Of a stretch of 27,505 bases of DNA, positions 11,324 through 25,948 are shown piece by piece. Positions within the stretch are counted from its first letter, which is position 1. Every line of letters begins with the position of its first letter. The notes below the pieces were generated by a model that searched no databases, had not been told where the DNA came from, and saw nothing but the letters and a program-made list of their open reading frames with translations. The position numbers and the translations under genes were made by a program. The stretch is from NCBI GenBank assembly GCA_964471025.1, contig CAYYES010000004.1, forward strand, positions 1 to 27,505, read 5' to 3'. The DNA is from an uncultured Candidatus Saccharibacteria bacterium (GTDB lineage: Bacteria > Patescibacteriota > Minisyncoccia > Phycocordibacterales > UBA1006).

Positions 11324-11905
11324 TTAGAAACCCGAACCACCTGCCTTGAGAATTTCTTCTGCATCCTTCTTTCTAATTTGTAGAAATGTGTTTCCGTTCG
11401 ATTGATTTTGATCAATCGAATAGAAGTCCTTTGCCGAATAAAATCTTCCCTTGTCATAAAAGTAGATCGCAAACCCGTTCTCTCCGCCACCTTCAACCGT
11501 TTTAAACGGAATAAGCGGGAAGGGTTTTTCATCTTCTACCTTTGCCACAAAATAGCGGCCAAGGATTTTTTTCTCTTCGATACTCATTGAATTTCCTATA
11601 TAGGTTGTGTCATAGTACACAACGCTATCGCGTATTTCAACAACACGACAAGGAGTGTTTGCGGGAATAGTTATACGCTTATCCACAACTTTTAAGTTGT
11701 GGTTTTTCGTCGCCACACCCTCCGTTGGTTGGTTGTTTTTGATGAGTACCACTTCTGAACTGGTCCAGAATTGAAGGTTTTTAATGGTTTGAGCCGAGCA
11801 TATTCGGCTCATAGTGTCCGTAAACGGCACCTTGGGTGTAAGTAAATTTTGTGCTGTGGCATTGATGCCTAAGCATACTAAAATGGCTGCTACTATACTT
11901 TTCAT
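11324..11905 (-). CDS. Hypothetical exported protein (193 aa), AT-rich
   Basis: Signal-peptide-like N-terminus MKSIVAAILVCLGINATAQ, with its own promoter and terminator. Confidence 0.75.
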   Translation of the reverse strand: MKSIVAAILVCLGINATAQNLLTPKVPFTDTMSRICSAQTIKNLQFWTSSEVVLIKNNQPTEGVATKNHNLKVVDKRITIPANTPCRVVEIRDSVVYYDTTYIGNSMSIEEKKILGRYFVAKVEDEKPFPLIPFKTVEGGGENGFAIYFYDKGRFYSAKDFYSIDQNQSNGNTFLQIRKKDAEEILKAGGSGF

Positions 11906-14844: not shown

Positions 14845-15110
14845 ACACCCCTGATTCAGCACCCCGAAATCCCGTTGACCAACAACATGTCAAAAATACC
14901 CGCGCCTCCATTGCCGAAGCAGAACGACATCTGAAAACAATTAACGAAGAGTTGGCGCGCCAGGAATCTGACGGACCTCATCCCAATTCAGCGGCAGTTG
15001 CTACGGCCAGACTGCAAGAAACCAGATCGGCACTCGAAGAAAAAATTTCCATCGCAAAAACCAAACTTGCAAACCTAGAAGACATCCATGGATCCGATTT
15101 TAACGAATAA
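14841..15110 (+). CDS. Hypothetical coiled-coil protein (89 aa)
   Basis: ATGA overlap with the kinase stop codon and an amphipathic helical sequence, followed by a terminator. Confidence 0.6.
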   Translation: MNTPDSAPRNPVDQQHVKNTRASIAEAERHLKTINEELARQESDGPHPNSAAVATARLQETRSALEEKISIAKTKLANLEDIHGSDFNE

Positions 15111-15131
15111 CAACCCTGCCGGGTTGTTATT
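15106..15131. terminator. Bidirectional terminator
   Basis: Perfect 11-bp stem AATAACAACCC-tgcc-GGGTTGTTATT between convergent stop codons. Confidence 0.7.
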
Positions 15132-15713: not shown

Positions 15714-16709
15714 TCACTTTCTCCGGATAACATCACGCACGGCAATCATGATGGATTCCTGGTCCAGTTGGTAATGTTTCATCAATTCATTAGGCGTGCC
15801 GGATTGTCCGAACTGGTCGCGCACGCCGATAAATTCCATCGGCACGGGATGCTCCTCGGCCAATACTTCGGCAACGGCGGATCCCATGCCGCCCATGATT
15901 TGATGTTCCTCGCAGGCAACAATCACACCCGCCGATTTTGCAAGGTTCACGATTGCATCGCGGTCAATCGGCTTGATCGTGTGCAAATTGATGACGGTTG
16001 CATTGATGCCCTCGTTCCCCAATTGCTGCGCGGCAAGGATTGCTGGGTAGACCAGACTGCCGCAGGCAATAATGCCGACATCAGGATGTTCTCCGTCAGC
16101 CGACGGATCAAATACCGCATATGCTTTCCCAATCTCAAAAGGAGTCTCTGCGGTAGTAAACGACGGCACGTTGGCACGTCCCAATCGCAGATAAGCCGGT
16201 TTTCTTCGGTCAGTTGATGGAAGAGCAATTGCAAGGGTCGCCTTGCGCGCTTCCTCGGCATCGGCTGGCACGATTACTGTCATATTCGGCATGCTGCGCA
16301 TGATGGCAATATCCTCGAGTGCCTGATGCGTCGCACCATCGGGACCGACCGTCAGCCCTGCATGACAGCCGATGATTTTCACCGGCACGCTATTGATCGC
16401 AATCGTCGTGCGGATTTGTTCCAAGTTGCGCCCCGGCGAAAATGTTGCATACGACGTAATGAATGGAATTTTGCCGTAATTGGCGAGTCCCGATGCAACG
16501 GTTGCAAGGTTTTGTTCAGCCACCCCCATTTCAATAAATCGTTCCGGGAATTGTTTTGAAAATTCCTCGACACGCGTAGATTCCTTGAGGTCTGCCGAAA
16601 GGGCGACGATGCGATCGTCAATTTTTGCTGCCTCGATCAAACCAATCCCGAATCCGTCGCGGGTGGGTTTTGGTTCACCAGTATCAAGTTTGAGCGTTTT
16701 TACGAGCAT
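15714..16709 (-). CDS. tkt: Transketolase, C-terminal (pyrimidine-binding) subunit
   Basis: TRDGFG, ADL..ST, EMGVAEQN, GPDGATHQ, YLRLGR, EEHQ..GG.GS, FGQSG. Confidence 0.94.
   Translation of the reverse strand: MLVKTLKLDTGEPKPTRDGFGIGLIEAAKIDDRIVALSADLKESTRVEEFSKQFPERFIEMGVAEQNLATVASGLANYGKIPFITSYATFSPGRNLEQIRTTIAINSVPVKIIGCHAGLTVGPDGATHQALEDIAIMRSMPNMTVIVPADAEEARKATLAIALPSTDRRKPAYLRLGRANVPSFTTAETPFEIGKAYAVFDPSADGEHPDVGIIACGSLVYPAILAAQQLGNEGINATVINLHTIKPIDRDAIVNLAKSAGVIVACEEHQIMGGMGSAVAEVLAEEHPVPMEFIGVRDQFGQSGTPNELMKHYQLDQESIMIAVRDVIRRK
16091..16109. repeat. Palindromic element family A, in frame in tkt-C (DPSADGE)
   Basis: CTCCGTCAGCCGACGGATC, 16/19 identical to 24752-24770 with a compensatory base-pair change. 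Confidence 0.75.
16204..16223. repeat. Degenerate family A copy in tkt-C (LPSTDR)
   Basis: Core TCGGTCAGTTGATGGA is 13/16 identical to TCCGTCAGCTGACGGA and is read in the same codon phase as the other copies. Confidence 0.45.
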
Positions 16710-16711
16710 AA

Positions 16712-16951
16712 TCAAGAAAGTATTCTAATTATTGCAACAAGGCCAATGAAAATCCAGACAATGTTCAGAACGGTTGGCTGCCAATCTTTTTTAGACGAAG
16801 CTTCGATTACAATTCCTAATGATCCTAGAATATTCATCGCCTGGTAAGGAACGGCTCTTGCTGAAAGCAAATTAAAACTTACTGCAAAATAAGCACCGAT
16901 GATAAGAACTGCCCCAGCCCAACCAATTATTTGAAAAAGTCGTTTATTCAT
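16712..16951 (-). CDS. Small membrane protein (CBU_0592-like, 79 aa)
   Basis: IIGWAGAVLIIGAYF...YQAMNILGS...VLNIVWIFI, about three TM helices, packed between the tkt subunits. Confidence 0.7.
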   Translation of the reverse strand: MNKRLFQIIGWAGAVLIIGAYFAVSFNLLSARAVPYQAMNILGSLGIVIEASSKKDWQPTVLNIVWIFIGLVAIIRILS

Positions 16952-16952
16952 G

Positions 16953-17813
16953 TTAAGCAAGATGACCAGGCTCAATTATTTCTTGTATAGATCGAAGTTC
17001 GGTAAGCCATTTATCAGCCTGTTCCGCATTCGGCGGCGTCCCGTGCCATTTATAATCACCCTCGATTTCCTTGATCCCCTTGCCCGGAATCGTGTGGGCA
17101 ATAATCACGGTCGGCTTCTCGACGATCGTTTTTGCGGTTTCGACAGCACTGACGATTTCATTAAAATCATGGCCGTTTATTTCAATCACATGCCAGTTAA
17201 ACGCTCGCCATTTATCTGCCAGCGGTTCAAGTGGCATCACGTTTTCCGTCATCCCATCAATTTGAATATTATTACGATCGATAATCGCCGTTAGATTATG
17301 CAATTTCTGATTTCCCGCAAACATGATCGCCTCCCATGAATTCCCTTCGTCCAATTCCCCGTCGGACATTAAACAATAGACGCGTTCCTTGCGATTATCC
17401 ATGCGCAGACCGAGAGCGATCCCGGAAGCTTGTGAAAGGCCCGATCCGAGCGGCCCCGACGTAGTTTCCATGCCCGGCAATTTTTCCCGTTCCGGATGCC
17501 CCTGCAATCGCGAACCGAATTTGCGCAACGTTTTTAATTCCTCTACCGGAAAATACCCCGCATGCGCCATGGTGGCATACCGCACCGGCACGATGTGACC
17601 ATTGGACAGGATCAGACGATCACGCCCGTCCCATTCCGGATGTTTCGGATCATGGTTCAAGATATGAAAATACAGCGCCGTGAAAATATCCGCCATGCCC
17701 AAAGGTCCCGCCGTGTGGCCGGATTTCGCCTCGGCCAGCATTTCAATGATTGATTGGCGAATTGAATTGGCTTTCAGTTCTAAATCCTTGATTTGTGCAT
17801 CACTAAGAGACAT
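16953..17813 (-). CDS. tkt: Transketolase, N-terminal (TPP-binding) subunit
   Basis: SGHTAG, DRLILSNGH, LQGHP, GPLGSG, SDGELDEG...WEA...IIDRN, and HG at the C-terminus. Start at ATG 17813 (MSLSDAQ). Confidence 0.95.
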   Translation of the reverse strand: MSLSDAQIKDLELKANSIRQSIIEMLAEAKSGHTAGPLGMADIFTALYFHILNHDPKHPEWDGRDRLILSNGHIVPVRYATMAHAGYFPVEELKTLRKFGSRLQGHPEREKLPGMETTSGPLGSGLSQASGIALGLRMDNRKERVYCLMSDGELDEGNSWEAIMFAGNQKLHNLTAIIDRNNIQIDGMTENVMPLEPLADKWRAFNWHVIEINGHDFNEIVSAVETAKTIVEKPTVIIAHTIPGKGIKEIEGDYKWHGTPPNAEQADKWLTELRSIQEIIEPGHLA

Positions 17814-17817
17814 GGGT

Positions 17818-18450
17818 TTATTGTACCAAAGATTCCAGCTTTTTAATATTTTCTTTCGGTTCCCCGTCAAACACCGCACTGCCGCATACAAACCGTACCG
17901 CGCCCGCATCGCGGAGTTTTTTGATAGTTTGCAGGTTCACTGCCCCATCTACCGAAATCGGCATGTTGGGATATTGCTCCTTGAAGTAGGCAATCTTTTC
18001 CAATACCCGCTCATCAAACGGTTCGCCTTGGAATCCGATATTTTTAATGCCCATCAGCTGGATAAAATCGCAATCATCGATATACGTTTCGAGCCATTCA
18101 TTCGGCGTATCATTCGATATCGACAGCCCAATTTCAATTTCTCCGCGAACCTGTTCAAGCGCCATGAACATTTTTTGCTGATCGTGGATACTTTCAACAT
18201 GCACAACAATGCGTGCTGGGTGCATGGCAATCCAGTCATCAATCGACTGTTCCGGCTGATCAATCATCAAATCAAGTTCGTATTCGACTTGATCCGCATG
18301 CGGCAATTCATGAAATTTCGTCACGCTCGGCACAAATACCCCGTCGCACACATCCACTTGCACCTGCGTTGCAATCCCTAAAACCGCCGAAACTTTTTCG
18401 GACAATTCTGATTGTGATTTAGGGAGAATGGCAGGGATGATTTTGTTCAT
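17818..18450 (-). CDS. rpe: Ribulose-phosphate 3-epimerase
   Basis: IIPAIL, QVDVCDGVFVP, ELDLMI, IQLMGI..GFQG, VDGAVN. Confidence 0.9.
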   Translation of the reverse strand: MNKIIPAILPKSQSELSEKVSAVLGIATQVQVDVCDGVFVPSVTKFHELPHADQVEYELDLMIDQPEQSIDDWIAMHPARIVVHVESIHDQQKMFMALEQVRGEIEIGLSISNDTPNEWLETYIDDCDFIQLMGIKNIGFQGEPFDERVLEKIAYFKEQYPNMPISVDGAVNLQTIKKLRDAGAVRFVCGSAVFDGEPKENIKKLESLVQ

Positions 18451-18451
18451 A

Positions 18452-18892
18452 TTAATCGTCGATTTTCTCGATTCTGCGCTCATGCCGCGCATCGCCGGAA
18501 AATTCCGTTTCCAAAAATATTTTCACTGCCTGCATTGCTTCATCATCAGCCACAAATCGAGCACCGAGCGACAGTACATTCGCATCATTATGTTCCCGTG
18601 AAATTTTCACCACGTCCAAATTCCCGCCGTAATATTCCGTCGCACGCACGTGTGCAAATCGATTAGCATCCATTGCCTCGCCCTGGCCGGATCCGCCAAT
18701 CACGATACCGCGCGAAGCATTATCATCTGAAACGGATGTTGCAACCGGTTCAATGAAATCAGGATAATCATCGCCCGGATGTTCATCGTACGCACCGTGA
18801 TCCACCACCTCGTGGCCCAATGACTGCACGTATGGTTTCAAGATCTCTTTGAGGTTGTAGCCGGCATGATCGGCTCCCATGTGGATTTTCAT
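18452..18892 (-). CDS. rpiB: Ribose-5-phosphate isomerase B (RpiB/LacA/LacB family)
   Basis: GADHAG, DDYPD, IGGSGQG, REHNDANVLSLGAR, RHERRI. Confidence 0.93.
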   Translation of the reverse strand: MKIHMGADHAGYNLKEILKPYVQSLGHEVVDHGAYDEHPGDDYPDFIEPVATSVSDDNASRGIVIGGSGQGEAMDANRFAHVRATEYYGGNLDVVKISREHNDANVLSLGARFVADDEAMQAVKIFLETEFSGDARHERRIEKIDD

Positions 18893-18921
18893 GCGACTAG
18901 TATATCAAATAACCCGTGCAT

Positions 18922-18949
18922 GAAAAAAGCTTTCCCTATTGGGAAAGCT
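18922..18949 (-). terminator. Terminator overlapping the stop codon of the peptidoglycan-binding gene
   Basis: A-tract plus AGCTTTCCC-tatt-GGGAAAGCT. Confidence 0.6.
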
Positions 18950-19754
18950 CGGCATAATACTCTTCAATCTTTGGACGAATATGGTCAAACATTTCATCCT
19001 GGTACCACTTTTTAGGGCGATACGGCCCAATCTGAAGCAGGCGCATCGTTTGGGAACCAACAATACCATCAGGCTGCAATTGGTGTTCCTTTTGGAATTG
19101 GATCACCGCCTGGCGTGTCGTTTCATTAAAATTACCGTCTACCTGGGTAGCGTAACCGTTAATTTGAAGCGCCGCCTGAAGTGTCAGTACGTAATATCCG
19201 TCGCGTGCGAATTCGCCAATCCCGGCGCCCTTGCGGAGCGTTTTCGGAAATTGATCAATCGGGCAATTTTCCTCGGCAACCGGGTAGTAATTTTCAGGCC
19301 AACCCTGCGGCACCTGAGTCGGATCAGTCACTTTTGCAATGAATGGTTCTGGTGCAACTGAATGAATCCCCGGGGATGACCATTTTTTCAAATATTCCTC
19401 CGTGGGCTGCATATATTCCGATCTTCTGAAAATAGTTCCGTTGCGCCGTAATGCCACAAAATATCCCGTGTCATTCGACATTGCAATAAAACTGTCAGTT
19501 ACAAGAATCTTTCGGGAATAGACCTTGCCGTTTTTGTAATAGGCCAGATCCATTTCCCAAATCAAATCAATACATACCTGAGCCGAACTTTTCGACTTAG
19601 GTACTACGAAAAATTGTTTCGGGTTCCAACGCTTCAGTGTTTGATAAGCGCCATCACCCGGCAAAGGAGTTATCGCCTCGTGAACCTGAAGAGAAGAAAC
19701 ACCCACCGCAACGGTTGCCACCAAGGCGCAAACCAAGAGAGCCGTTTTCATCAT
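18936..19754 (-). CDS. Exported protein with a C-terminal peptidoglycan-binding domain (PG_binding_1)
   Basis: Signal peptide, then LQAALQINGY...VDGNFNETTRQAVIQFQKEHQLQPDGIVGSQT. Confidence 0.85.
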   Translation of the reverse strand: MMKTALLVCALVATVAVGVSSLQVHEAITPLPGDGAYQTLKRWNPKQFFVVPKSKSSAQVCIDLIWEMDLAYYKNGKVYSRKILVTDSFIAMSNDTGYFVALRRNGTIFRRSEYMQPTEEYLKKWSSPGIHSVAPEPFIAKVTDPTQVPQGWPENYYPVAEENCPIDQFPKTLRKGAGIGEFARDGYYVLTLQAALQINGYATQVDGNFNETTRQAVIQFQKEHQLQPDGIVGSQTMRLLQIGPYRPKKWYQDEMFDHIRPKIEEYYAELSQ

Positions 19755-19828
19755 TTGCTACTTTATTTTTAGGGTAAGGAAATAAGATTTAAAGTATAAT
19801 AACCCTTTTATGTAAAATGTCAAGAATC

Positions 19829-19856
19829 ATAAAAACCACCCGCGGGTAGTTTTTAT
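19829..19856 (-). terminator. Terminator of the DEAD-box helicase gene
   Basis: ATAAAAACCACC-cgcg-GGTAGTTTTTAT hairpin with A/T tracts. Confidence 0.55.
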
Positions 19857-19862
19857 TGGATA

Positions 19863-21116
19863 CTATACGAATGTGAGCGCAATCCCCTTCTTGTCCGCGC
19901 GGCCGGTGCGGCCGATGCGGTGAACATACGTTTCGTAGTTCTGAGGGATTTCGTAATTGATCACGTGCGAAACGCCCGAAATGTCGAGTCCGCGCGCCGC
20001 AACGTCGGTGGCAATCAGAATCTGTGCCTTGCCGGTTGCAAACTGCGCGAGCGACAACTGGCGCTGACGGTGTTCCTTGTCTCCGTGAATCGATTCAGCC
20101 TTGAATCCGCGAGATCTCAGTTCATCATGCAATTTGTCGACGGAACGTTTCGTTTCCACGAAAATCAACACCTTGCTGAAATGCGGATCCTGCAACAATC
20201 CCGCAAGGATATCCAATTTCTTGGATTTATCCTGTACGCGCACCACATCCTGATCCACGTTTTTCGACGTGTCGCGGGTTTTCACGGAAATTTTCACCGG
20301 CTGGTGCAAAAATTCATGCACCAGTTTTTCAATTTCCTTGGGCATCGTTGCCGAAAACAACAGCATCTGGCGTTCGCTCGGAATGTGTTTGAGGAAGTAG
20401 CGCACGTCATCGATGAACCCCATGTCAAGCATGCGGTCCGCCTCGTCGAGGATCACCGTGCTGACCGAACCCATGTCCAATTTGCCGCGCTCCTGCAAAT
20501 CCTTTAATCGTCCCGGCGTACCGATCACGATATTGTGTTTCTGTTCCAATGCGCGCATCTGCATGCGAATCGGCGCGCCGCCCACACAGGTTACATTGAA
20601 CAATGCCAATTTGCGGCACAGTTCAATGCATTCTTTCTGGATCTGGATCGCCAATTCGCGCGTCGGCGTGATGACGATTGCCTTGTGTTTCGGATCCTTC
20701 AAAATTTTGTTAATTGTCGGGATCAAAAACGATGCGGTTTTACCGGTTCCGGTATTCGCCAATCCTAAAATATCACGTCCGTCGAGCGCGTGCGGAATCG
20801 CCTGGTCCTGAATCGGACTTGGCACCGTATAGCCCTTGTGAGCAATGTTTTCCTTGAGGCGCGCGTCGATTTTAAAATCGTTAAACGTATGCGTCGGGCT
20901 GTAGACATCCTCGACGATCGTTTCGGCCTTGTTAATGAATTTTGAAATGTCGATGTAGTCGCCCGTCTGTTTGCGCCCACCGCGTCCGCGGCCAAATCCG
21001 CCGCGACCGCCAAATCGCCCGCCTCCTCGGGAACCCCCGAATCGCGAGCCGCCGGATCCGCGTCGCTTATCGCCAAACAGCGATGATGACGGCCCGGCCG
21101 TTAAATCTCGTACCAT
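19863..21116 (-). CDS. DEAD-box ATP-dependent RNA helicase with a Gly/Arg-rich N-terminal extension
   Basis: Q motif (PSPIQ), ANTGTGKT, PTRELA, GTPGRL, DEAD, SAT, ARGLD, HRIGRTGR. Confidence 0.95.
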   Translation of the reverse strand: MVRDLTAGPSSSLFGDKRRGSGGSRFGGSRGGGRFGGRGGFGRGRGGRKQTGDYIDISKFINKAETIVEDVYSPTHTFNDFKIDARLKENIAHKGYTVPSPIQDQAIPHALDGRDILGLANTGTGKTASFLIPTINKILKDPKHKAIVITPTRELAIQIQKECIELCRKLALFNVTCVGGAPIRMQMRALEQKHNIVIGTPGRLKDLQERGKLDMGSVSTVILDEADRMLDMGFIDDVRYFLKHIPSERQMLLFSATMPKEIEKLVHEFLHQPVKISVKTRDTSKNVDQDVVRVQDKSKKLDILAGLLQDPHFSKVLIFVETKRSVDKLHDELRSRGFKAESIHGDKEHRQRQLSLAQFATGKAQILIATDVAARGLDISGVSHVINYEIPQNYETYVHRIGRTGRADKKGIALTFV

Positions 21117-21234
21117 ATATAAAATCTTGGGTTGTCCTCCGATGATAATAAAGAACTTGATGGACTCTCACTAGGGCCCTTCAGATGGCGCAGGATGCGC
21201 GAGGAAAGGCGAAAAAATCAATCAAAGTAATGGA

Positions 21235-21278
21235 AAACAACGTGTGCCAAGAATAGCACACGTTGTTTATTTTGGCAA
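21235..21278 (-). promoter_or_regulatory. Sigma70-type promoter whose -10 box lies in the loop of a perfect 13-bp inverted repeat
   Basis: TTGCCA (21278-21273)-N17-TATTCT (21255-21250). Arms are AAACAACGTGTGC (21235-21247) and GCACACGTTGTTT (21256-21268). Confidence 0.55.
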
Positions 21279-21288
21279 GCTATGCCAC

Positions 21289-21441
21289 CTACTGCGCATC
21301 ATCAGATGCACTATCCGAATCTTCATGACGCATCATTTCCTCTGCAGCAATCTCCTCGTCAGTTTTGAATCCCTCGGGAAAAGGAAACGACTCGGGGCGA
21401 CCTTCGTAATCTGTCAAACCTACCCAGGTTGGTTCTTCCAT
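21289..21441 (-). CDS. Small acidic hypothetical protein (50 aa)
   Basis: ATG is 1 nt after the gap stop codon. Sequence is MEEPTWVGLTDYEGRPESFPFPEGF... Confidence 0.45.
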   Translation of the reverse strand: MEEPTWVGLTDYEGRPESFPFPEGFKTDEEIAAEEMMRHEDSDSASDDAQ

Positions 21442-21442
21442 A

Positions 21443-22492
21443 TTATTTGATGGTTTTGCCTGTTTTGACCACATGCTCGACCAGCGTATGCGTATACCCC
21501 ATTTCGTTGTCATACCACGCCAACACCTTGACCAAGTTCCCGCCGATTACGCGCGTCATTTCCAAATCCGCAATCGATCCGTATTTGCTGCCAAGTATGT
21601 CGGTGGATACCAACGGTTCGTCCGTGACTGAAAATACTCCGGCCCATCGCGCATCTGCAGCGGCTTTTTTCAAAATCTGGTTTACTTCGTCTGCAGATGT
21701 ATCGCGTTTGGCGATAAACGTCACATCAACGATCGATCCGGCAACCACCGGAACTCGCATGGAAATACCATCGAACAATCCCTCGAGCGCCGGGAACGCC
21801 TTGGTAACGGCGATTGCCGCACCCGTTGATGAGGGAACAATATTCATCGCTGCCGCGCGGCCCTCGCGCAAATCTTTCTTGCTCGGTCCGTCAACCAACG
21901 CCTGCGATGCCGTGTATCCGTGCGTCGTGGAAAGCACCGCTTTTTCAATACCGATCGCCTCGTCCAAAATGGCGATCAATGGCGATGCGGCGTTCGTCGT
22001 GCATGATGCGTTCGAGGTAATGTCGCATGTGCCGAATTTTTCCTCGTTCACGCCCATCAAAATCGTTGCGCCGGAAACGGCTTGAACACCTGCAGCATCA
22101 CCTTCCTTGGCGGGCGCGGTGATGACGACCTTTTTCGCGCCGTCATCAATGTGGAATTTCGCCTTGTCATAGGCTGTAAACAATCCGGTTGATTCCACAA
22201 CAACATCGATATTCAAATCTTTCCATGGCAATTTGGTGGTGTCTTTTTCCGAAATGAACGCGATTTTTTTACCATCGATGATGATGTTTTTATCATCGTG
22301 CGAAACCGCATGGTTCCATTTACGATACACCGTGTCGTATTTCAACAGATACGACAAGGATTCAATGCTACCCAAATCGTTCACGGCGACGATTTCAAGT
22401 TCCGGGCGTTCCCATGCCAATTTCACAAATGCTCGCCCGATGCGCCCAAACCCATTCACCGCCACGCGGATTTTTTTTGTTCCGAAAATCAT
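21443..22492 (-). CDS. gap: Glyceraldehyde-3-phosphate dehydrogenase, type I
   Basis: VAVNGFGRIGR, VVESTG, ASCTTN, MRVPV, WYDNEMGY. Confidence 0.97.
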   Translation of the reverse strand: MIFGTKKIRVAVNGFGRIGRAFVKLAWERPELEIVAVNDLGSIESLSYLLKYDTVYRKWNHAVSHDDKNIIIDGKKIAFISEKDTTKLPWKDLNIDVVVESTGLFTAYDKAKFHIDDGAKKVVITAPAKEGDAAGVQAVSGATILMGVNEEKFGTCDITSNASCTTNAASPLIAILDEAIGIEKAVLSTTHGYTASQALVDGPSKKDLREGRAAAMNIVPSSTGAAIAVTKAFPALEGLFDGISMRVPVVAGSIVDVTFIAKRDTSADEVNQILKKAAADARWAGVFSVTDEPLVSTDILGSKYGSIADLEMTRVIGGNLVKVLAWYDNEMGYTHTLVEHVVKTGKTIK

Positions 22493-22527
22493 ATGAGCCA
22501 GTATACCAGGTACGCAAAAAGCGGCAA

Positions 22528-22920
22528 TTAGGCCGCCTTGCTCACCTGATGATCGCGCGATGGCAGCAACTCGCCATTCTTGCCAACAATCCCTTTGCAG
22601 TACTGATATATTTTTTCCGTATCAATCATATAGTCAATAATATATCTTTTATATCCTCCACGGGCAGGAAACTGTGACTGCCGATACGTTGCGATATCAA
22701 ACCCTATAGCATTATTCAAGTCCTCAATGTCGGATTTAATAGCACCGTCATTACGGCCCACGAAATAAGGCTCGTTCAATAATCGCTTCAATTCACCCAG
22801 GCGCGCGCGTTGCATATCCTGGGTCAATGAAAGATATTCCCAAGCTTTTTTCTTCTTGGAGTAATCAGGCACATCCTCGATAAACCGAGGAAAGAATTCG
22901 AGCTGTTTCCCAATATTCAT
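22528..22920 (-). CDS. Hypothetical protein (130 aa)
   Basis: ATGA overlap with the helicase stop codon. No recognised motif. Confidence 0.55.
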   Translation of the reverse strand: MNIGKQLEFFPRFIEDVPDYSKKKKAWEYLSLTQDMQRARLGELKRLLNEPYFVGRNDGAIKSDIEDLNNAIGFDIATYRQSQFPARGGYKRYIIDYMIDTEKIYQYCKGIVGKNGELLPSRDHQVSKAA

Positions 22921-25900
22921 GGCTTTAGTGTACTCGCCTGGTAAATTGCCGCAAGGGCGCAATACTGGCACTCCTCGCCCTGGTAGGATTTGTGATGGCA
23001 TTGCCGGTTCACCCATTCCCCTGTTTTAAGCAACCGATCGTAATCCCGGATATCCTGACGCAGGCGCTCAAGGTGCTCCCCTGTAATTTTTGTGGCATAT
23101 AACGCATTTTTATCGCCCGGTTTTGCTTCGATAAATTCCAGCCGTGATTCAACGGCCTCCTGATTCCCGCCCGACTTCCCTTCTAATAGGAACGAATACA
23201 TCGCGAGCTGGCGCAAGTAATCCGACATGCGACCCTCCTCGTCGTCTTTTTCAATTTCAGATTTGGTTTTCGGTTTGCCGGTTTTGAAATCCGTCACGCG
23301 CACCGAAACCTCGTCGAGTTTTTCGAGCAGATCGATTTTTCCCGTAATTTTTAGATGATCGAATTCAGCATCCCGGAATTTGTAGAACGGATACTCGCTT
23401 TCATATTCGTCCGCGATTTCAGGCAGGCGCTTGGCCACCCACGATTCGAGCACCTCGAATGCATCTTTTTTAATCCGTGACTCCTCATACTCATCAGCAA
23501 AATGAATTTCCGAAACACACTCGTCGATCATGCTACGCAATATTTCATGGTCGGGAGTGATCTTTTTCTTGAGAATTTTTTCAATTGTGCCGTGAACCAC
23601 GCTTCCAAAATGGAGCGATATCGACAATGGTTCCGGCAGGCGCAACAAATTGCGGAAATACCATTTCCACGGACATTCAAAAAAATTATTGAGTGCGGTG
23701 ACCGATACGTCGATCGTACCATATTCATCTGCCACCAGTTCTGCCAATTCAGAAACGGCAACGGGTTGCCGGATGACGGGATTCGCCGTGACATACGCCG
23801 TGACATTATTTTCAAGAATGAAGGTTTCCGAATCAGCAAGAGTTCTTTTCTCGAATTGGTCCTGCAGCAAGTCCGCAACAATATGCGCCACCTGTTGCTC
23901 GCCGCCCGTATAGCTGCGGCGTGCATAGGACAACGTACAATATTGTTTTGCGCGCGTCATGGCGACATACAATTGACGCTTCAGTGTCTGCTCATCTTTT
24001 TCCTCGACACGCTCCTTGATGGTTTCAGGAAGGGTGAATGCGGCATGCTTGCGCCCGCCCAGGTTTTTCTCGTCGACATGCGCAATCCATACGTATTCAA
24101 ATTCGAGGCCTTTGGATGCGTGGAGCGTCATGACGCGCACACCCTGATCTGCGCCGAATACGGCAAGCGGGACATCCGTACCGTAGGCGCGCAACCGTTC
24201 GATGAAATTCAAAAAATCTGCGAGCTTCTGGTTTCTCGACTGCGACTTCTGAAGCCTCTCACCCTGTGACAAGGCAAGATGAAGAAATGTTCGCAGAATC
24301 TCTACTCGCCTCACCAATGCTTCATGATTGGTTGCTGTCTTGATCAACAAGTCATCACCTATTTTCTGAATCAGCCCATACACATCCGTATGCTGCGACC
24401 GTTCCAACCACGCACGGAGCTTTCCTGCCCACGGGACAATGGTTTCAGAATCATCCTCGAGCATTTTTTCGAGCGTCAATTGTTTCGCTCGCACCCCCGA
24501 CAGGTACCGGTGCGCATCGAGCGGTGCAATCCCCGATAATGGGTCAAGAATCGTTCGCGCGACATATTCAGGCGCCGTAGGATGCGCAATAGCCGCAAGG
24601 ATATCCAAGAAGCTCTGCGCCTCGGGCAATTCAAACAATTTCAAATTCCCTGCGGATGCGACAGGAATTCCCAAATCAGCAAGCACGCGCATCGCGCTTT
24701 TCACTTGGGCGTTTTTCGGAACAAGAATCGCGCATTCTTTGGGGTCGATTCCTCCGCCAGCTGGCGGATCGATCAGTTCCTTGATTTCAAGGCCTGCCGC
24801 AATGATTTCATCGCGCGGATATTCGGATTCAACCAAATGCACCGGCCGGTCGCCATCACGATGGCCGATTAATTTCGCATCGACGATTGAACTTTTGAGC
24901 AGTTCCTCGGCTGCATCCAAAATAATCTGCGTGGAACGATAGTTATCGGTGAGCGTAATGATGCGGGCATCGGGAAACGCGGTGGTGAATCCGGTAAACC
25001 GCGCAAGCGATGCGCCACCGAATTCGTAAATCAACTGGCGATCATCGCCCACGACAAACACATCAGGTTTTTCCAAATCGCCCCATACCCGCGTTAAAAA
25101 TTCATTTTGCACGCCGCTCGAATCCTGGTGTTCGTCAATCAACACGTACAGATACCGCTCGCGGAGCGTATCCCGCACCTCGTCTGAAACCTCTACGAGC
25201 CGCACGATGTTTGCCAGAACATCATCATAATCAAGAAGCGACCGTTCGATTTTTGCGGCTTCATAGTATTCGTAAAAATCAACGACTTCGCGCGTGCGTT
25301 CTAATCCTTCGATTTTCTTGATGGCATCCGCCTTCAATTGTCCCTTGGTTGCACCACGGGATGAAATATTTTCCTCGTTGTTTTTGATAGCATCAATTTC
25401 GTTTTCAATCTCGGTTTTAAACGCATCAGGGGTAATCCGTTCGCGCTTGAGCAATGATACCAATGATTTAATGTCCCCGAAAAACGCTGCCGGATTCGCG
25501 CGAGTTCTAATATGTTTCCAATCGTGCGCGTGCAAAATTTCGTCCGCAAGCGCAATGGACTGCAAGTCATCAATCAATTGCGGACGAATCTCGTAACCGA
25601 GGTGGGCATAAAATTCCTCGATCAGTTTCATGCCGAAACTGTGGAACGTCGCGATCATCACGCGCGACGCGGCCGGGCCGATGTAGGTGCGCAGGCGATC
25701 CTGCATGGCGCGTACGCCAGAATTGGTAAACGTCAGGCACAAAATCCCGTCGGCAGGCGTTCCGGTTTTCTGGATGATGTTAGCAATGCGTACGGCCAGC
25801 ACCTGCGTTTTCCCGGTCCCCGGGCCGGCAACGACCATAACAGGACCGTCAATGGCATCTACGGCTGCGCGTTGGGCGGCATTTAATTGGGCATAAGCGC

Positions 25901-25922
25901 GGGAAAAAGTATCGGGATTCAT
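22917..25922 (-). CDS. UvrD/PcrA-like SF1A DNA helicase fused to a C-terminal PD-(D/E)XK nuclease with four Cys (AddA/AdnAB-like)
   Basis: Helicase: AGPGTGKT, TFHSF, DEHQD, NYRST, TLHASKGLEF, YVAMTRAK. Nuclease: GKIDL...TDFKTG...QLAMY. Cys in FECPW and C-x9-C-x2-C. Start at ATG 25922. Confidence 0.9.
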   Translation of the reverse strand: MNPDTFSRAYAQLNAAQRAAVDAIDGPVMVVAGPGTGKTQVLAVRIANIIQKTGTPADGILCLTFTNSGVRAMQDRLRTYIGPAASRVMIATFHSFGMKLIEEFYAHLGYEIRPQLIDDLQSIALADEILHAHDWKHIRTRANPAAFFGDIKSLVSLLKRERITPDAFKTEIENEIDAIKNNEENISSRGATKGQLKADAIKKIEGLERTREVVDFYEYYEAAKIERSLLDYDDVLANIVRLVEVSDEVRDTLRERYLYVLIDEHQDSSGVQNEFLTRVWGDLEKPDVFVVGDDRQLIYEFGGASLARFTGFTTAFPDARIITLTDNYRSTQIILDAAEELLKSSIVDAKLIGHRDGDRPVHLVESEYPRDEIIAAGLEIKELIDPPAGGGIDPKECAILVPKNAQVKSAMRVLADLGIPVASAGNLKLFELPEAQSFLDILAAIAHPTAPEYVARTILDPLSGIAPLDAHRYLSGVRAKQLTLEKMLEDDSETIVPWAGKLRAWLERSQHTDVYGLIQKIGDDLLIKTATNHEALVRRVEILRTFLHLALSQGERLQKSQSRNQKLADFLNFIERLRAYGTDVPLAVFGADQGVRVMTLHASKGLEFEYVWIAHVDEKNLGGRKHAAFTLPETIKERVEEKDEQTLKRQLYVAMTRAKQYCTLSYARRSYTGGEQQVAHIVADLLQDQFEKRTLADSETFILENNVTAYVTANPVIRQPVAVSELAELVADEYGTIDVSVTALNNFFECPWKWYFRNLLRLPEPLSISLHFGSVVHGTIEKILKKKITPDHEILRSMIDECVSEIHFADEYEESRIKKDAFEVLESWVAKRLPEIADEYESEYPFYKFRDAEFDHLKITGKIDLLEKLDEVSVRVTDFKTGKPKTKSEIEKDDEEGRMSDYLRQLAMYSFLLEGKSGGNQEAVESRLEFIEAKPGDKNALYATKITGEHLERLRQDIRDYDRLLKTGEWVNRQCHHKSYQGEECQYCALAAIYQASTLKP
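24752..24770. repeat. Palindromic element family A, in frame in the helicase (DPPAGGG)
   Basis: Perfect 16-bp palindrome TCCGCCAGCTGGCGGA at 24753-24768. Confidence 0.78.
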
Positions 25923-25948
25923 GGCTCCAGTATACCAGAGCATGCGAG

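Follow-up and report, generated by a model that had tools for sequence, protein, structure and literature searches.

A 16-bp palindromic repeat in the transketolase and helicase genes of a wastewater bacterium and its relatives

Why do two unrelated housekeeping genes of a wastewater bacterium carry nearly the same short palindrome, read in the same codon phase? The initial annotation of this locus had proposed that these two copies, together with a decayed third one, belong to a second family of micro-elements, conserved as a hairpin rather than as protein, which might propagate itself or act as a genome-wide signal for uptake, recombination or protein binding. We examined the copies in the window (the whole 27,505-nt stretch of DNA analyzed here), in the 645-kb genome that contains it (G000) and in related genomes.

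Copies in the window and at the same sites in other genomes

We found that one 16-bp palindrome family, TCCGYCAGCTGRCGGA (family A), covers all three copies, of which two are intact and one is decayed. The C-variant copy, the perfect 16-bp palindrome TCCGCCAGCTGGCGGA (24753..24768, minus strand), lies in a gene for an AddA/PcrA-like helicase-nuclease (22917..25943, minus strand; UvrD-helicase, UvrD_C and PD-(D/E)XK by Pfam). Positions 24752-24770 encode D-P-P-A-G-G (GAT CCG CCA GCT GGC GGA), helicase residues 392-397, and the copy adds 4 codons that 23 of 25 orthologues lack, in a loop directly before the conserved AILVPKN stretch. The T-variant copy (16092..16107, minus strand; TCCGTCGGCTGACGGA on the coding strand) has a 6-bp stem whose loop is closed by a G.T wobble, and lies in the C-terminal subunit gene of a split transketolase (15714..16715, minus strand; Transket_pyr and Transketolase_C by Pfam); Pfam also assigns the N-terminal subunit (16953-17909). 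This copy reads D-P-S-A-D-G (GAT CCG TCG GCT GAC GGA), residues 203-208, in the linker that joins the Transket_pyr domain to Transketolase_C (site 1), where it adds 4 codons compared with close relatives, in a loop that varies in length among orthologues. Site 1 holds unrelated palindromic inserts in other genomes. The decayed copy (16206..16221, minus strand; TCCATCAACTGACCGA on the coding strand) has 3 mismatches to the T-variant consensus and reads L-P-S-T-D-R-R, residues ~165-171, close to where the Transket_pyr domain ends (site 2), and its 4 inserted codons are missing from 98 of 105 transketolase orthologues.

These results bear out much of what had been read from the letters of the window. 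The 19-mers at 24752-24770 and 16091-16109 have 16 of 19 nucleotides in common and identical flanks (C...TC on the plus strand), with a compensatory C-G to T-A pair in the stem and, as the third difference, the G.T wobble on the coding strand. The two coding sequences, both on the minus strand, contain them in the same orientation and phase, and the decayed copy is in that phase as well, at the very site where two other genomes have an intact one. The view that the transketolase copies are loop insertions was also correct: all three window copies add 4 codons relative to most orthologues, a multiple of three nucleotides, as the initial annotation had expected.

All three sites are filled elsewhere. 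The helicase gene of G009 carries an identical 21 nt at the same site as the window copy, such that all 21 nt and all 7 third positions agree between the inserts of G000 and G009, whereas the flanks agree at 55% of nucleotides and at 25 of 74 third positions. Transketolase site 1 is filled in G024 (T-variant) and in L110 and L125 (C-variant), and is decayed in L015/L122; its filled state extends to distant genomes labeled Kaiserbacteria and Nomurabacteria. Site 2, at which the window genome holds a decayed T-variant, is intact in G005 (TCCGCCAGCTGGCGGA, C-variant) and G009 (TCCGTCAGTTGACGGA, T-variant); the G005 copy is the same in sequence as the window's helicase copy.

Census of the palindrome family

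The helicase and transketolase pair alone is not significant, as 0.8-1.5 such pairs are expected per codon-shuffled genome (in a shuffle test that counted pairs of in-CDS hairpins with a 6-bp stem, in the same phase and with ≥16/20 identities). It is the relatives and the further copies that place the family beyond chance: we found exact matches in 97 of 401 Paceibacteria-type genomes of the order, compared to none for a reversed control sequence in the same search, and G000 has 4 copies at ≤1 mismatch, compared to 0.05 expected. The genome-wide count that had been suggested as a check yields little within G000 itself: the exact pattern proposed at the outset has only two copies in the 645-kb genome, and the family just the 4 at ≤1 mismatch.

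The consensus of the micro-repeat is T-CCGYCAGCTGRCGG-A. Over 104 unique sites in relatives, conservation is 98% at the outer T and A and extends no further into the flanks. Paired C-G and T-A variants leave the arms complementary, and a compensatory variant subfamily is present. Among the 104 sites, 44 fall within long ORFs, and 32 of these 44 copies read a PPAGG-type peptide; the palindrome is also present in non-coding DNA. Its hosts are Paceibacteria-type CPR bacteria, but also Bacteroidota and members of other phyla. Since identical codons recur in unrelated genes and in different genomes, the sequences support the reading of the palindrome as a DNA-level micro-element family rather than a protein motif, as had been proposed. 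The further claim, conservation as a hairpin, fared less clearly: the C-G/T-A variants do occur, but the claim is weakly testable, because self-correcting palindromic DNA predicts the same variants. Our literature search found no description of this 16-bp palindrome family.

By contrast, the idea of a genome-wide recognition or uptake signal did not hold up. DNA uptake sequences (DUS/USS) are dense, at ~1 per kb, and common to a whole lineage. The palindrome has ~4-5 copies in total in G000 and 0-31 sites per 0.5-1.3 Mb genome among the relatives, with a maximum density of ~1 per 20-40 kb, and 304 of the 401 genomes, three quarters of those sampled, have none. We rejected a DUS/USS on these counts, and an uptake or recombination signal is unsupported because it should be dense and common to the whole lineage. 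As a separate observation, the coding sequences of G000 contain 26 long perfect palindromes (stem at least 10 bp), compared to 3.4 in synonymous shuffles, many of them with GNA-type triloops.

Origin of the copies

To see what an insertion changes, we compared filled and empty alleles. In genus g2 (L007/L102/L010), exactly 4 nt give way to the 16-mer, so that the gene grows by 12 nt (4 codons) but not through a clean addition of 12 nt; the alleles, with hyphens at the boundaries, are GA-AACA-GAA, then GA-AACA or ATCT-GGR, and, in the helicase, G[CA]-AAAC-GGA. Where the 16-mer is absent, the alleles of close relatives have 4 unrelated nt and no deletion scars, and a proto-palindrome was absent from the empty sites in the three cases seen. 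The replaced target is 3 nt long for tRNA D-loops, 8 nt for tRNA-Lys copies and 7 nt for one MITE copy, a variation that no single clean cut-and-paste geometry accounts for. The number of copies ranges from 0 to 5 among genomes of one genus, and their loci differ. The transketolase tree requires at least 5 changes for site 1 and 3 for site 2, and thus the filled lineages are never sisters, although this inference of gain versus loss is parsimony on one gene tree with weak deep support. We looked for presence/absence polymorphism of the palindrome in the source population and found none.

We consider it probable that the palindrome is a dispersed micro-repeat, written into genomes by DNA-level events in which a GIY-YIG nuclease (described below) may take part. 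Each event swaps a few target bases for the 16-mer (4 nt in the coding cases resolved). Copies are gained or lost fast, since members of one genus differ; those that survive in genes are mostly in one frame, (N/D)-P-[PS]-A-[GD]-G, within tolerant loops or linkers, and copies decay, as at transketolase site 2 in the window. Solo copies might be spread by the nuclease itself, or by its break together with repair that copies or ligates the palindrome. The copies in G000 may be low-number relics or occasional acquisitions rather than an active burst.

We considered that the palindrome might instead be the binding site of a dimeric host or element protein (of the parS, Noc or SlmA type, or an operator), kept by selection, with the coding copies tolerated in loops. 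Sites such as parS, NBS and SBS are palindromic, occur in few to dozens of copies and lie partly inside genes, so a perfect 16-bp palindrome in few to few dozen copies, partly intragenic, is typical of them in size and number; moreover, the G000 and G009 helicase copies are extremely conserved while their flanks are at saturation, and the constant place close upstream of the GIY-YIG start codon is operator-like. G000 itself has only one canonical parS-like site, a weak one. The patchy presence and the origin by insertion, rather than by point mutation, do not match such sites, given that three quarters of sampled relatives have no copies and one genus has 0-5 at different loci. Furthermore, one window copy has decayed, other copies ride in MITE-like repeats, and no candidate binding protein co-varies with the family except the GIY-YIG gene. 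We think this explanation unlikely. It is also quite improbable, in our view, that each filled site is one old ancestral insertion, conserved and mostly lost by small in-frame deletions, with no ongoing mobility. Palindromes are known to be deletion-prone, two filled sites are common to G000 and G009, and the filled transketolase lineages of family f1 all fall in one 12-genome sub-clade in which the order of basal branching is not resolved. Nevertheless, an old origin needs more events (1 gain and 4 losses, compared to 3 gains, at site 2), and it does not sit well with the different variants at site 2 (C in G005, T in G009 and G000), with filled site 1 in the distant Kaiserbacteria- and Nomurabacteria-labeled genomes, or with the 4 unrelated nt, and no scars, of the empty alleles; in addition, the neutral third positions of the insert should have diverged like the flanks.

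A general hairpin-making mutation (template switching at quasi-palindromes or fold-back synthesis) could also perfect palindromes in place, with family A as a favored end-point, for instance because PPAGG codons are quasi-palindromic. Indeed, the PPAGG amino acids fix five of the eight pairs of the 16-mer, and the 26 long perfect palindromes of G000, the unrelated palindromic inserts at transketolase site 1 and a hairpin in the TruB gene, unchanged in length but with a stem that differs compensatorily among three congeners, all suggest that such a process may operate. We give it little credence for family A, because 64 perfect palindromes could encode xPPAGG but a single one, with its transition variants, recurs in different phyla and outside coding DNA as well, and because the event inserts foreign sequence, not a copy of neighboring DNA. 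As for a chance likeness of two GC-rich hairpins in coding DNA, to which we assign next to no probability, a pair this similar is indeed expected about once per shuffled genome, and the exact pattern of the initial annotation has no further copy in G000; but the recurrence of this sequence in other genomes at identical insertion sites, and matches in 97 of 401 genomes compared to 0 for the control, rule it out.

A candidate partner nuclease and known repeat systems

In each of the 13 top-ranking loci examined for one subfamily of small GIY-YIG genes (GIY-A; PF01541 matches), the palindrome precedes the ORF by 17-55 nt, and in 11 of them a tRNA lies immediately downstream. The cassette runs from a partial tRNA copy through the palindrome and a gene for a ~85-aa GIY-YIG nuclease to an intact gene for tRNA-Asn or tRNA-Lys. 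Likewise, the palindrome family is present in every one of the 13 genomes whose GIY-A matches rank highest (E ≤ 1e-29; ORFs of ~80-90 aa), compared to a base rate of 97/401, an association that is partly built in, as the cassette itself contains one copy. Mucilaginibacter flavidus, a cultured Bacteroidota isolate, has ~24 copies, with GIY-YIG genes adjoining copies; in G318 (~25 copies) and G188 (~22), a GIY-YIG gene lies beside no copy. Cassettes with the ORF adjoining both palindrome and tRNA occur in relatives but not in G000; we found no small GIY-YIG gene of this subfamily in the G000 assembly or in its genus, although the tRNA-Asn locus is absent from this 90%-complete assembly.

These loci point to the GIY-YIG nuclease as a candidate partner of the palindrome. 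Judging from sequence, a homing-endonuclease-like role, in which the ORF product would cleave sites and promote copying, is a candidate function. Genes of the phage T4 SegB type are free-standing GIY-YIG homing endonuclease genes in a tRNA region. The cassettes resemble these in having a small GIY-YIG gene beside or inside tRNA genes with part of the target duplicated, and resemble selfish nuclease cassettes in their sporadic distribution. Unlike the SegB type, the proteins are ~80-90 aa, a catalytic domain only with no DNA-binding domain, the genes are chromosomal in bacteria of several phyla, and the fixed palindrome also occurs as solo copies. We know of no GIY-YIG nuclease with DNA strand transfer activity. 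A bolder idea, which we hold only tentatively and think rather doubtful, is that the palindrome is the smallest known mobile DNA, a nuclease-dependent "micro-insert" with its home copy in tRNA-lodged GIY-YIG cassettes, which dimeric nucleases would copy or ligate into breaks, adding Pro-Pro-Ala-Gly loops to essential proteins in several phyla.

If the reading as a mobile micro-repeat is true, a repeat of 16 bp, far below the size of REPs, RPEs and MITEs, colonizes essential genes of the smallest bacterial genomes, with a partner nuclease from a class not known to mobilize DNA. It would be a concrete, testable case of short peptide loops joining conserved proteins, and would show selfish DNA persisting in streamlined genomes; M. 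flavidus is a cultured carrier suited to testing it. For annotation, the family accounts for recurrent PPAGG/PSADG inserts and for loci with a "broken tRNA plus small ORF" in CPR assemblies. The window alone, with its few relic copies, adds detail and not a new phenomenon: the T-variant, the decayed copy, the recurrence at the same sites and the exchange of 16 nt for 4.

We compared family A with known repeats. Small dispersed repeats (SDR) of heterocystous cyanobacteria, reportedly described by Elhai and coworkers in 2008, are said to be mobile, hairpin-capable insertions of ~20-odd nt with no transposase of their own. The 16-mer is likewise a very small, hairpin-capable repeat that behaves as such an insertion, but differs in sequence, host range and size (16 bp) and has a candidate partner gene. 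MITEs are IS-derived elements of 50-500 nt with terminal inverted repeats and a target-site duplication. We rejected a MITE, as there is no such duplication and 3-8 nt of target are replaced instead; the direct repeat next to the C5 copy is part of an 11-nt repeat array. The 16-mer does ride within MITE-like repeats of 135-330 nt in G300. Rickettsia palindromic elements (RPEs), reportedly described by Ogata and coworkers in 2000, are ~100-150 nt long, and REPs are 20-40 nt. Like RPEs and in-gene REPs, family A is a dispersed palindrome, in frame in housekeeping genes, that contributes a short peptide at tolerated positions and is patchy among relatives; unlike them, its unit is 16 bp, with a net gain of 12 nt. 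The in-frame coding insertion that characterizes RPEs, here with predicted translation, is present at the three window sites, and 44 of the 104 sites in relatives fall in long ORFs; membership among the RPEs was rejected on length and host (16 bp; CPR bacteria and Bacteroidota, not Rickettsia). According to Di Nocera et al. 2013 (PMC3733652), REPs also insert within genes, among them those for UvrD/Rep-type helicases and further DNA-repair proteins, and orthologous recB genes carry different REPs at roughly the same position.

Similarly, the REP/REPIN-RAYT systems (Nunvar et al. 2010, PMC2817692; Bertels and Rainey 2011, PMC3116915) resemble family A in having short GC-rich hairpin repeats, in tens of copies and sometimes as inverted doublets, and a single-gene partner enzyme, here a candidate, flanked by its repeat. 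In contrast to those systems, the candidate partner is a tRNA-lodged GIY-YIG nuclease, not a Y1 (HUH) transposase, and the 16-mer is common to several phyla, whereas REP sequences are lineage-specific. Y1 genes are present in 5/5 high-copy genomes but also in 5/10 zero-copy genomes, each flanked by a different palindrome. Family A flanks none of the RAYT genes, and the Y1 genes of G300, G242, G188, G318 and G069 have no family A copy within ~1 kb, except loosely in G069; a PF01797 match is absent from G000. Mucilaginibacter copies lie 112 nt apart, with a GCAG or GTAG tag; the CPR copies are without a GTAG or CGTC tag, as G[TGC]AG adjoins only 6 of 104 sites. We rejected a classical REP/RAYT element on the 16-bp unit, the missing tag and the other palindromes that flank the Y1 genes. 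The order does contain genuine REP/RAYT-like systems, as in G318, which has 26 copies of RAGGTCNGACCTY around one Y1 gene.

Copies in transketolase and helicase genes

The two 19-mers that the initial annotation placed at 16091-16109 and 24752-24770 are both present, each in a gene on the minus strand. The first lies in a gene (15714-16715) for the C-terminal subunit of a split transketolase, with Transket_pyr and Transketolase_C domains, and the second is in an AddA/PcrA-like helicase-nuclease (22917-25943; UvrD, UvrD_C and PD-(D/E)XK domains). On the coding strand, the transketolase copy (site 1, 16092-16107) reads GAT CCG TCG GCT GAC GGA, encoding DPSADG (residues 203-208), and the helicase copy (24753-24768) reads GAT CCG CCA GCT GGC GGA, encoding DPPAGG (residues 392-397), in a common codon phase, as had been proposed. 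In the helicase, all 16 bp form a perfect palindrome (C-variant). The transketolase copy (T-variant) has a 6-bp stem, in which T-A takes the place of C-G, the compensatory change reported earlier, and its coding strand contains a G.T wobble. We also located the suggested third, decayed copy (site 2, 16206-16221), which differs at 3 positions and shares the phase of the other two; its predicted mRNA hairpin is weak (~-4.6 kcal/mol, compared to -13.3 and -8.9 for the others). Three long perfect hairpins between genes of the window (11397-11420, 15106-15131 and 18928-18949; stems of 9-11 bp, 4-nt loops) bear no relation to this family, which we call family A, and are probably intrinsic terminators.

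Comparison with orthologues revealed that all three copies are insertions. At the helicase site, the four codons are missing from 23/25 orthologues, and G009, a genome of a different genus, carries the identical 21 nt, GATCCGCCAGCTGGCGGAGGA. Between the window's genome (G000) and G009, the 80 flanking helicase codons have 55% nucleotide identity and agree at 25/74 third positions; the insert agrees at 21/21 nt and 7/7 third positions. Transketolase site 2 is empty in 98/105 orthologues, but holds exactly the helicase 16-mer in G005 and TCCGTCAGTTGACGGA in G009, which validates the decayed copy in the window. Site 1 holds the T-variant in G024, the C-variant in two distant genomes, and a decayed copy in one Zambryskibacteria-labelled genome. 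Congeners of the window genome have 0-5 copies each, at differing loci. We found no indel at the three sites in contigs from four wastewater runs, a contig-level comparison that rare alleles would escape, and the helicase palindrome is intact in a ~94%-identical contig from another study. The linker loop at site 1 also bears palindromic inserts unrelated to family A (in L148, L139, L167 and L169), among them the perfect palindrome CTGCCTGCCGGCAGGCAG of 18 nt and a hairpin encoding SLASGESRSKASG, whose 15-bp stem closes on a GAA loop.

Within genus g2, the very closely related genomes L007, L102 and L010 differ in which sites are occupied, so that the boundaries of insertion could be fixed. At site 1, GA/AACA/GAA becomes GA/16-mer/GAA; at site 2, GA/AACA or ATCT/GGR becomes GA/16-mer/GGA; and in the helicase, G[C]/AAAC/GGA in G024 corresponds to GA/16-mer/GGA in G009. 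In these genes, then, the 16-mer takes the place of 4 nt, for a net gain of 12. We rejected a pure 12-nt insertion by comparing a filled allele with a close empty relative, in which each contiguous 12-nt deletion of the filled allele left at least 3/6 nt mismatched (by inspection); the 16-for-4 replacement fits better. The replaced stretch varies among non-coding copies of the 16-mer: tRNA D-loops have lost 3 nt to it, tRNA-Lys copies 8 nt and a MITE copy 7 nt. The fixed gain of 12 nt in genes therefore probably reflects a reading-frame filter acting on events of a break-and-fill type. A target-site duplication at a copy on G000 contig C5 was rejected, because the flanking direct repeat belongs to an 11-nt repeat array. 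This array (C5:26900-27045; L194:900-1045) has ~8 copies of the unit TCAAAACGACA and an iteron-like look, and one unit is interrupted by the family A copy TCCGCCAACTGGCGGA.

Recurrence and competing explanations

The exact pattern, which had been offered as a possible self-propagating or genome-wide signal, does not recur in the 645-kb G000, a wastewater CPR assembly (90% complete) in which we counted the two known copies and nothing further. Moreover, synonymous- or codon-order-shuffled versions of this genome yield similar in-CDS hairpin pairs (same phase, at least 16/20 identities) 0.8-1.5 times each; against this null, two-copy similarity by itself is unremarkable. Thus, enrichment had to come from relatives. 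With at most 1 mismatch to either consensus form, G000 has 4 copies (the extra two at C5:27015 and C27:762), compared to 0.05 for shuffled palindromes of the same composition and 0 for the reversed sequence. Furthermore, TCCGYCRGYTGRCGGA is present in 97/401 genomes of the same order (labelled Nomura-, Kaiser-, Yanofskybacteria, Paceibacterota etc.), with a maximum of ~31 sites per genome, but when read backwards in 0/401. These matches in other genomes are the decisive evidence for the family, and leave chance similarity with almost no credibility. One unpublished genome among the 401 (G271) was counted in the tallies only and is the basis of no claim. The G000 contigs also contain ~21 internal runs of ~100 N (2110 N in total; e.g. 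C1:4501-5574 and C21:9645-10274), which are either scaffold gaps or withheld sequence and which look like palindromes to naive scans.

Descent from one ancient insertion, followed by losses, is unlikely. On a transketolase tree computed without the insert columns, site 1 needs at least 5 changes and site 2 at least 3, no two filled lineages are sisters, and a single gain is less parsimonious, although the deep branches of the family are weakly supported. In G000, a generic mutational process that makes palindromes does operate: the CDSs of at least 200 aa contain 26 perfect palindromes whose stems reach 10 bp or more, compared to 3.4 +/- 2.1 in synonymous shuffles (for example in C48:3-647, C51:1191-2246, C12:4458-5717 and C35:726-1535). 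In many of these, a unique GC-rich stem 11-18 bp long closes on a GNA-type triloop, GAA or GCA (or complements). Specifically, TruB (C51:1191-2246) has at gene nt ~769-801 a hairpin with a 15-bp stem and a GAA loop, encoding TAAISRSEIAAD, that arose in place, i.e. with length unchanged relative to orthologues; the TruB genes of congeners G006 and G007 have hairpins at the same position with different but compensating stems, and those of four other congeners have none. However, such a process fails to explain one identical sequence at unrelated loci and across phyla, and we consider it an improbable origin of family A. That the palindrome is a selected protein-binding site strikes us as rather unlikely. 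One weak canonical-like parS site was found in G000.

Two other repeats were noted in G000. TruB has an extra segment of ~50 aa (residues ~151-200) that is not in its relatives, and since segments 62-63% identical to it occur at C29:6208-6357 and C49:3791-3871, this is a larger in-frame repeat. A second palindrome family, of pyrimidine/purine type (e.g. CCCCCTCCTAtgTAGGAGGGGG and CCCTCTCCTnnnAGGAGAGGG), is found in frame in genes as SP(L/S)xxGEG or SPSYVGGG (C19:7618-9990, two sites; C54:2065-2691; also C8, C11, C7 and C30).

Anatomy and distribution

We compared 104 unique sites across 34 CPR genomes. Conservation reaches 98% at the outer T and A, so that the unit is 16 bp long; further out, there is nothing but a weak bias towards A at -2 and -3, and these CPR sites carry no GTAG tag. 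Well within ORFs of at least 150 aa are 44 of the 104 sites, 32 of which are read in the frame P-[PS]-[AVT]-[GD]-G, mostly following N or D; this dominant frame is the expected remnant of random insertion and purifying selection. The remaining sites are intergenic, some at the apex of terminator-like hairpins and some within MITE-like repeats of 135-330 nt with GTAAGTCCT termini. In G300, such repeats are ~135 nt (L086, L093, L094) or ~330 nt (L082, L089, L090) long with the 16-mer internal, and their terminal inverted repeats end GTAAGTCCT/AGGACTTAC; the L082 copy has a second palindrome in place of its sister copy's GCGTTGC. A known RNA family was rejected, as Rfam gave no match at the palindromes.

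Multiple exact copies of the 16-mer are likewise present in Bacteroidota and further phyla. The cultured Bacteroidota isolate Mucilaginibacter flavidus RT5R15, a possible experimental host, has ~24 copies (e.g. C36:21000-27500, L438, and C10:4260-7156), several of them paired as inverted doublets 112 nt apart, in which the 16-mer is accompanied by a tag (GCAG or GTAG) and by a conserved tail of 18 nt. Carriage by phages was not confirmed: the 56 exact 16-mers in viral contigs are mostly in high-GC contigs, approximate the chance expectation, and in no case adjoin a tRNA or an ORF of GIY-A, the nuclease subfamily described below.

Family A behaves like RPEs and intragenic REPs, but is without the defining features of REP/RAYT, RPE, MITE or uptake sequences, and our literature search found no description of it. 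Di Nocera et al. (PMC3733652) report REPs in the genes of UvrD/Rep helicases and of other repair proteins, and REPs that share an insertion site among recB orthologues. We conclude that family A is an ultra-small, gene-colonising palindromic repeat with a candidate nuclease partner. The observations of the initial annotation stand, while its interpretation is borne out in part. The window adds the T-variant, the decayed copy, recurrence at the same site and the 16-for-4 geometry.

A candidate partner enzyme

Small GIY-YIG genes (PF01541, 80-110 aa) adjoin the 16-mer in Mucilaginibacter and in CPR genomes; M. flavidus has tandem 101-aa genes, each with a copy ~295 nt upstream. Small GIY-YIG genes of any kind are nearly ubiquitous (319/401 genomes of the order), but one subfamily, GIY-A, stands out: its 13 best-matching genomes (E<=1e-29), spread over ~10 families, all carry family A, compared to the base rate of 97/401 (hypergeometric probability ~5e-9, or ~1e-7 without the two query genomes; hand-computed). 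This association is partly built in, since the cassette itself holds a copy: in 13/13 loci, the GIY-A ORF is preceded, at a distance of 17-55 nt, by one with no more than 2 mismatches. Examples of GIY-A ORFs are G009 C1:126693-126932 and G242 C4:36629-36874. Directly after the ORF is a tRNA gene in 11/13 loci (mostly Asn-GTT, also Lys), the start of which is overlapped by the 3' end of the ORF. The DNA upstream is a partial copy of this tRNA, in which the 16-mer stands in for D-loop nucleotides in Asn, and in Lys and Val for the anticodon stem's 5' strand. A selfish nuclease cassette that has lodged in tRNA genes has this layout, and the palindrome is one of its fixed components. The association gives the palindrome's constant home, and spreading it is a candidate role for the nuclease. 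Although TCCGCC/GGCGGA, the arms of the palindrome, match the G300 tRNA-Lys acceptor stem exactly, an acceptor-stem origin was rejected, because the same arms are in tRNA-Pro and tRNA-Asn cassettes and no G000 tRNA starts so.

At the descriptive core is a specific 16-bp palindrome that is written into new places with a few bases replaced, an account that we hold to be probable. The 16-mer turns over fast, and nearly all of its surviving copies in genes lie within loops and read in the PPAGG frame; its arms are kept complementary by paired changes, and copies decay, as at site 2. We infer that breaks, made either by the cassette's GIY-YIG nuclease or at hairpin-prone sites, would be filled by copying or ligating the palindrome. 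A nuclease-driven step is a tentative proposal, which we hold to be less likely than not. Two genomes, G318 and G188, have >20 copies each with no adjoining GIY-YIG gene, and GIY-A was not found in G000 or its genus (although tRNA-Asn, the usual lodging site, is also missing from the G000 assembly); both observations count against simple dependence on the nuclease. The cassette may spread horizontally through conserved tRNA genes, which would account for identical sequence across phyla. The window copies look like a few relics or occasional acquisitions.

We also considered Y1 (RAYT/IS200-type) enzymes and rejected them as partners, because PF01797 is found in 5/5 high-copy but also in 5/10 zero-copy genomes, and each Y1 gene has a palindrome of its own on its flanks, distinct from that of family A. 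G318 has a classical REP/RAYT-like system, with 26 copies of RAGGTC-N-GACCTY (e.g. C1:26105-26143 and C1:60537-60575), several of which form doublets at a spacing of 26 nt, and just one Y1-transposase-like gene (C1:77779-78003; L239) that is flanked by, and contains, this palindrome. The counterpart Y1-flanking palindromes are GACGTCnGACGTC in G069 and GGTCAACAC in G188.
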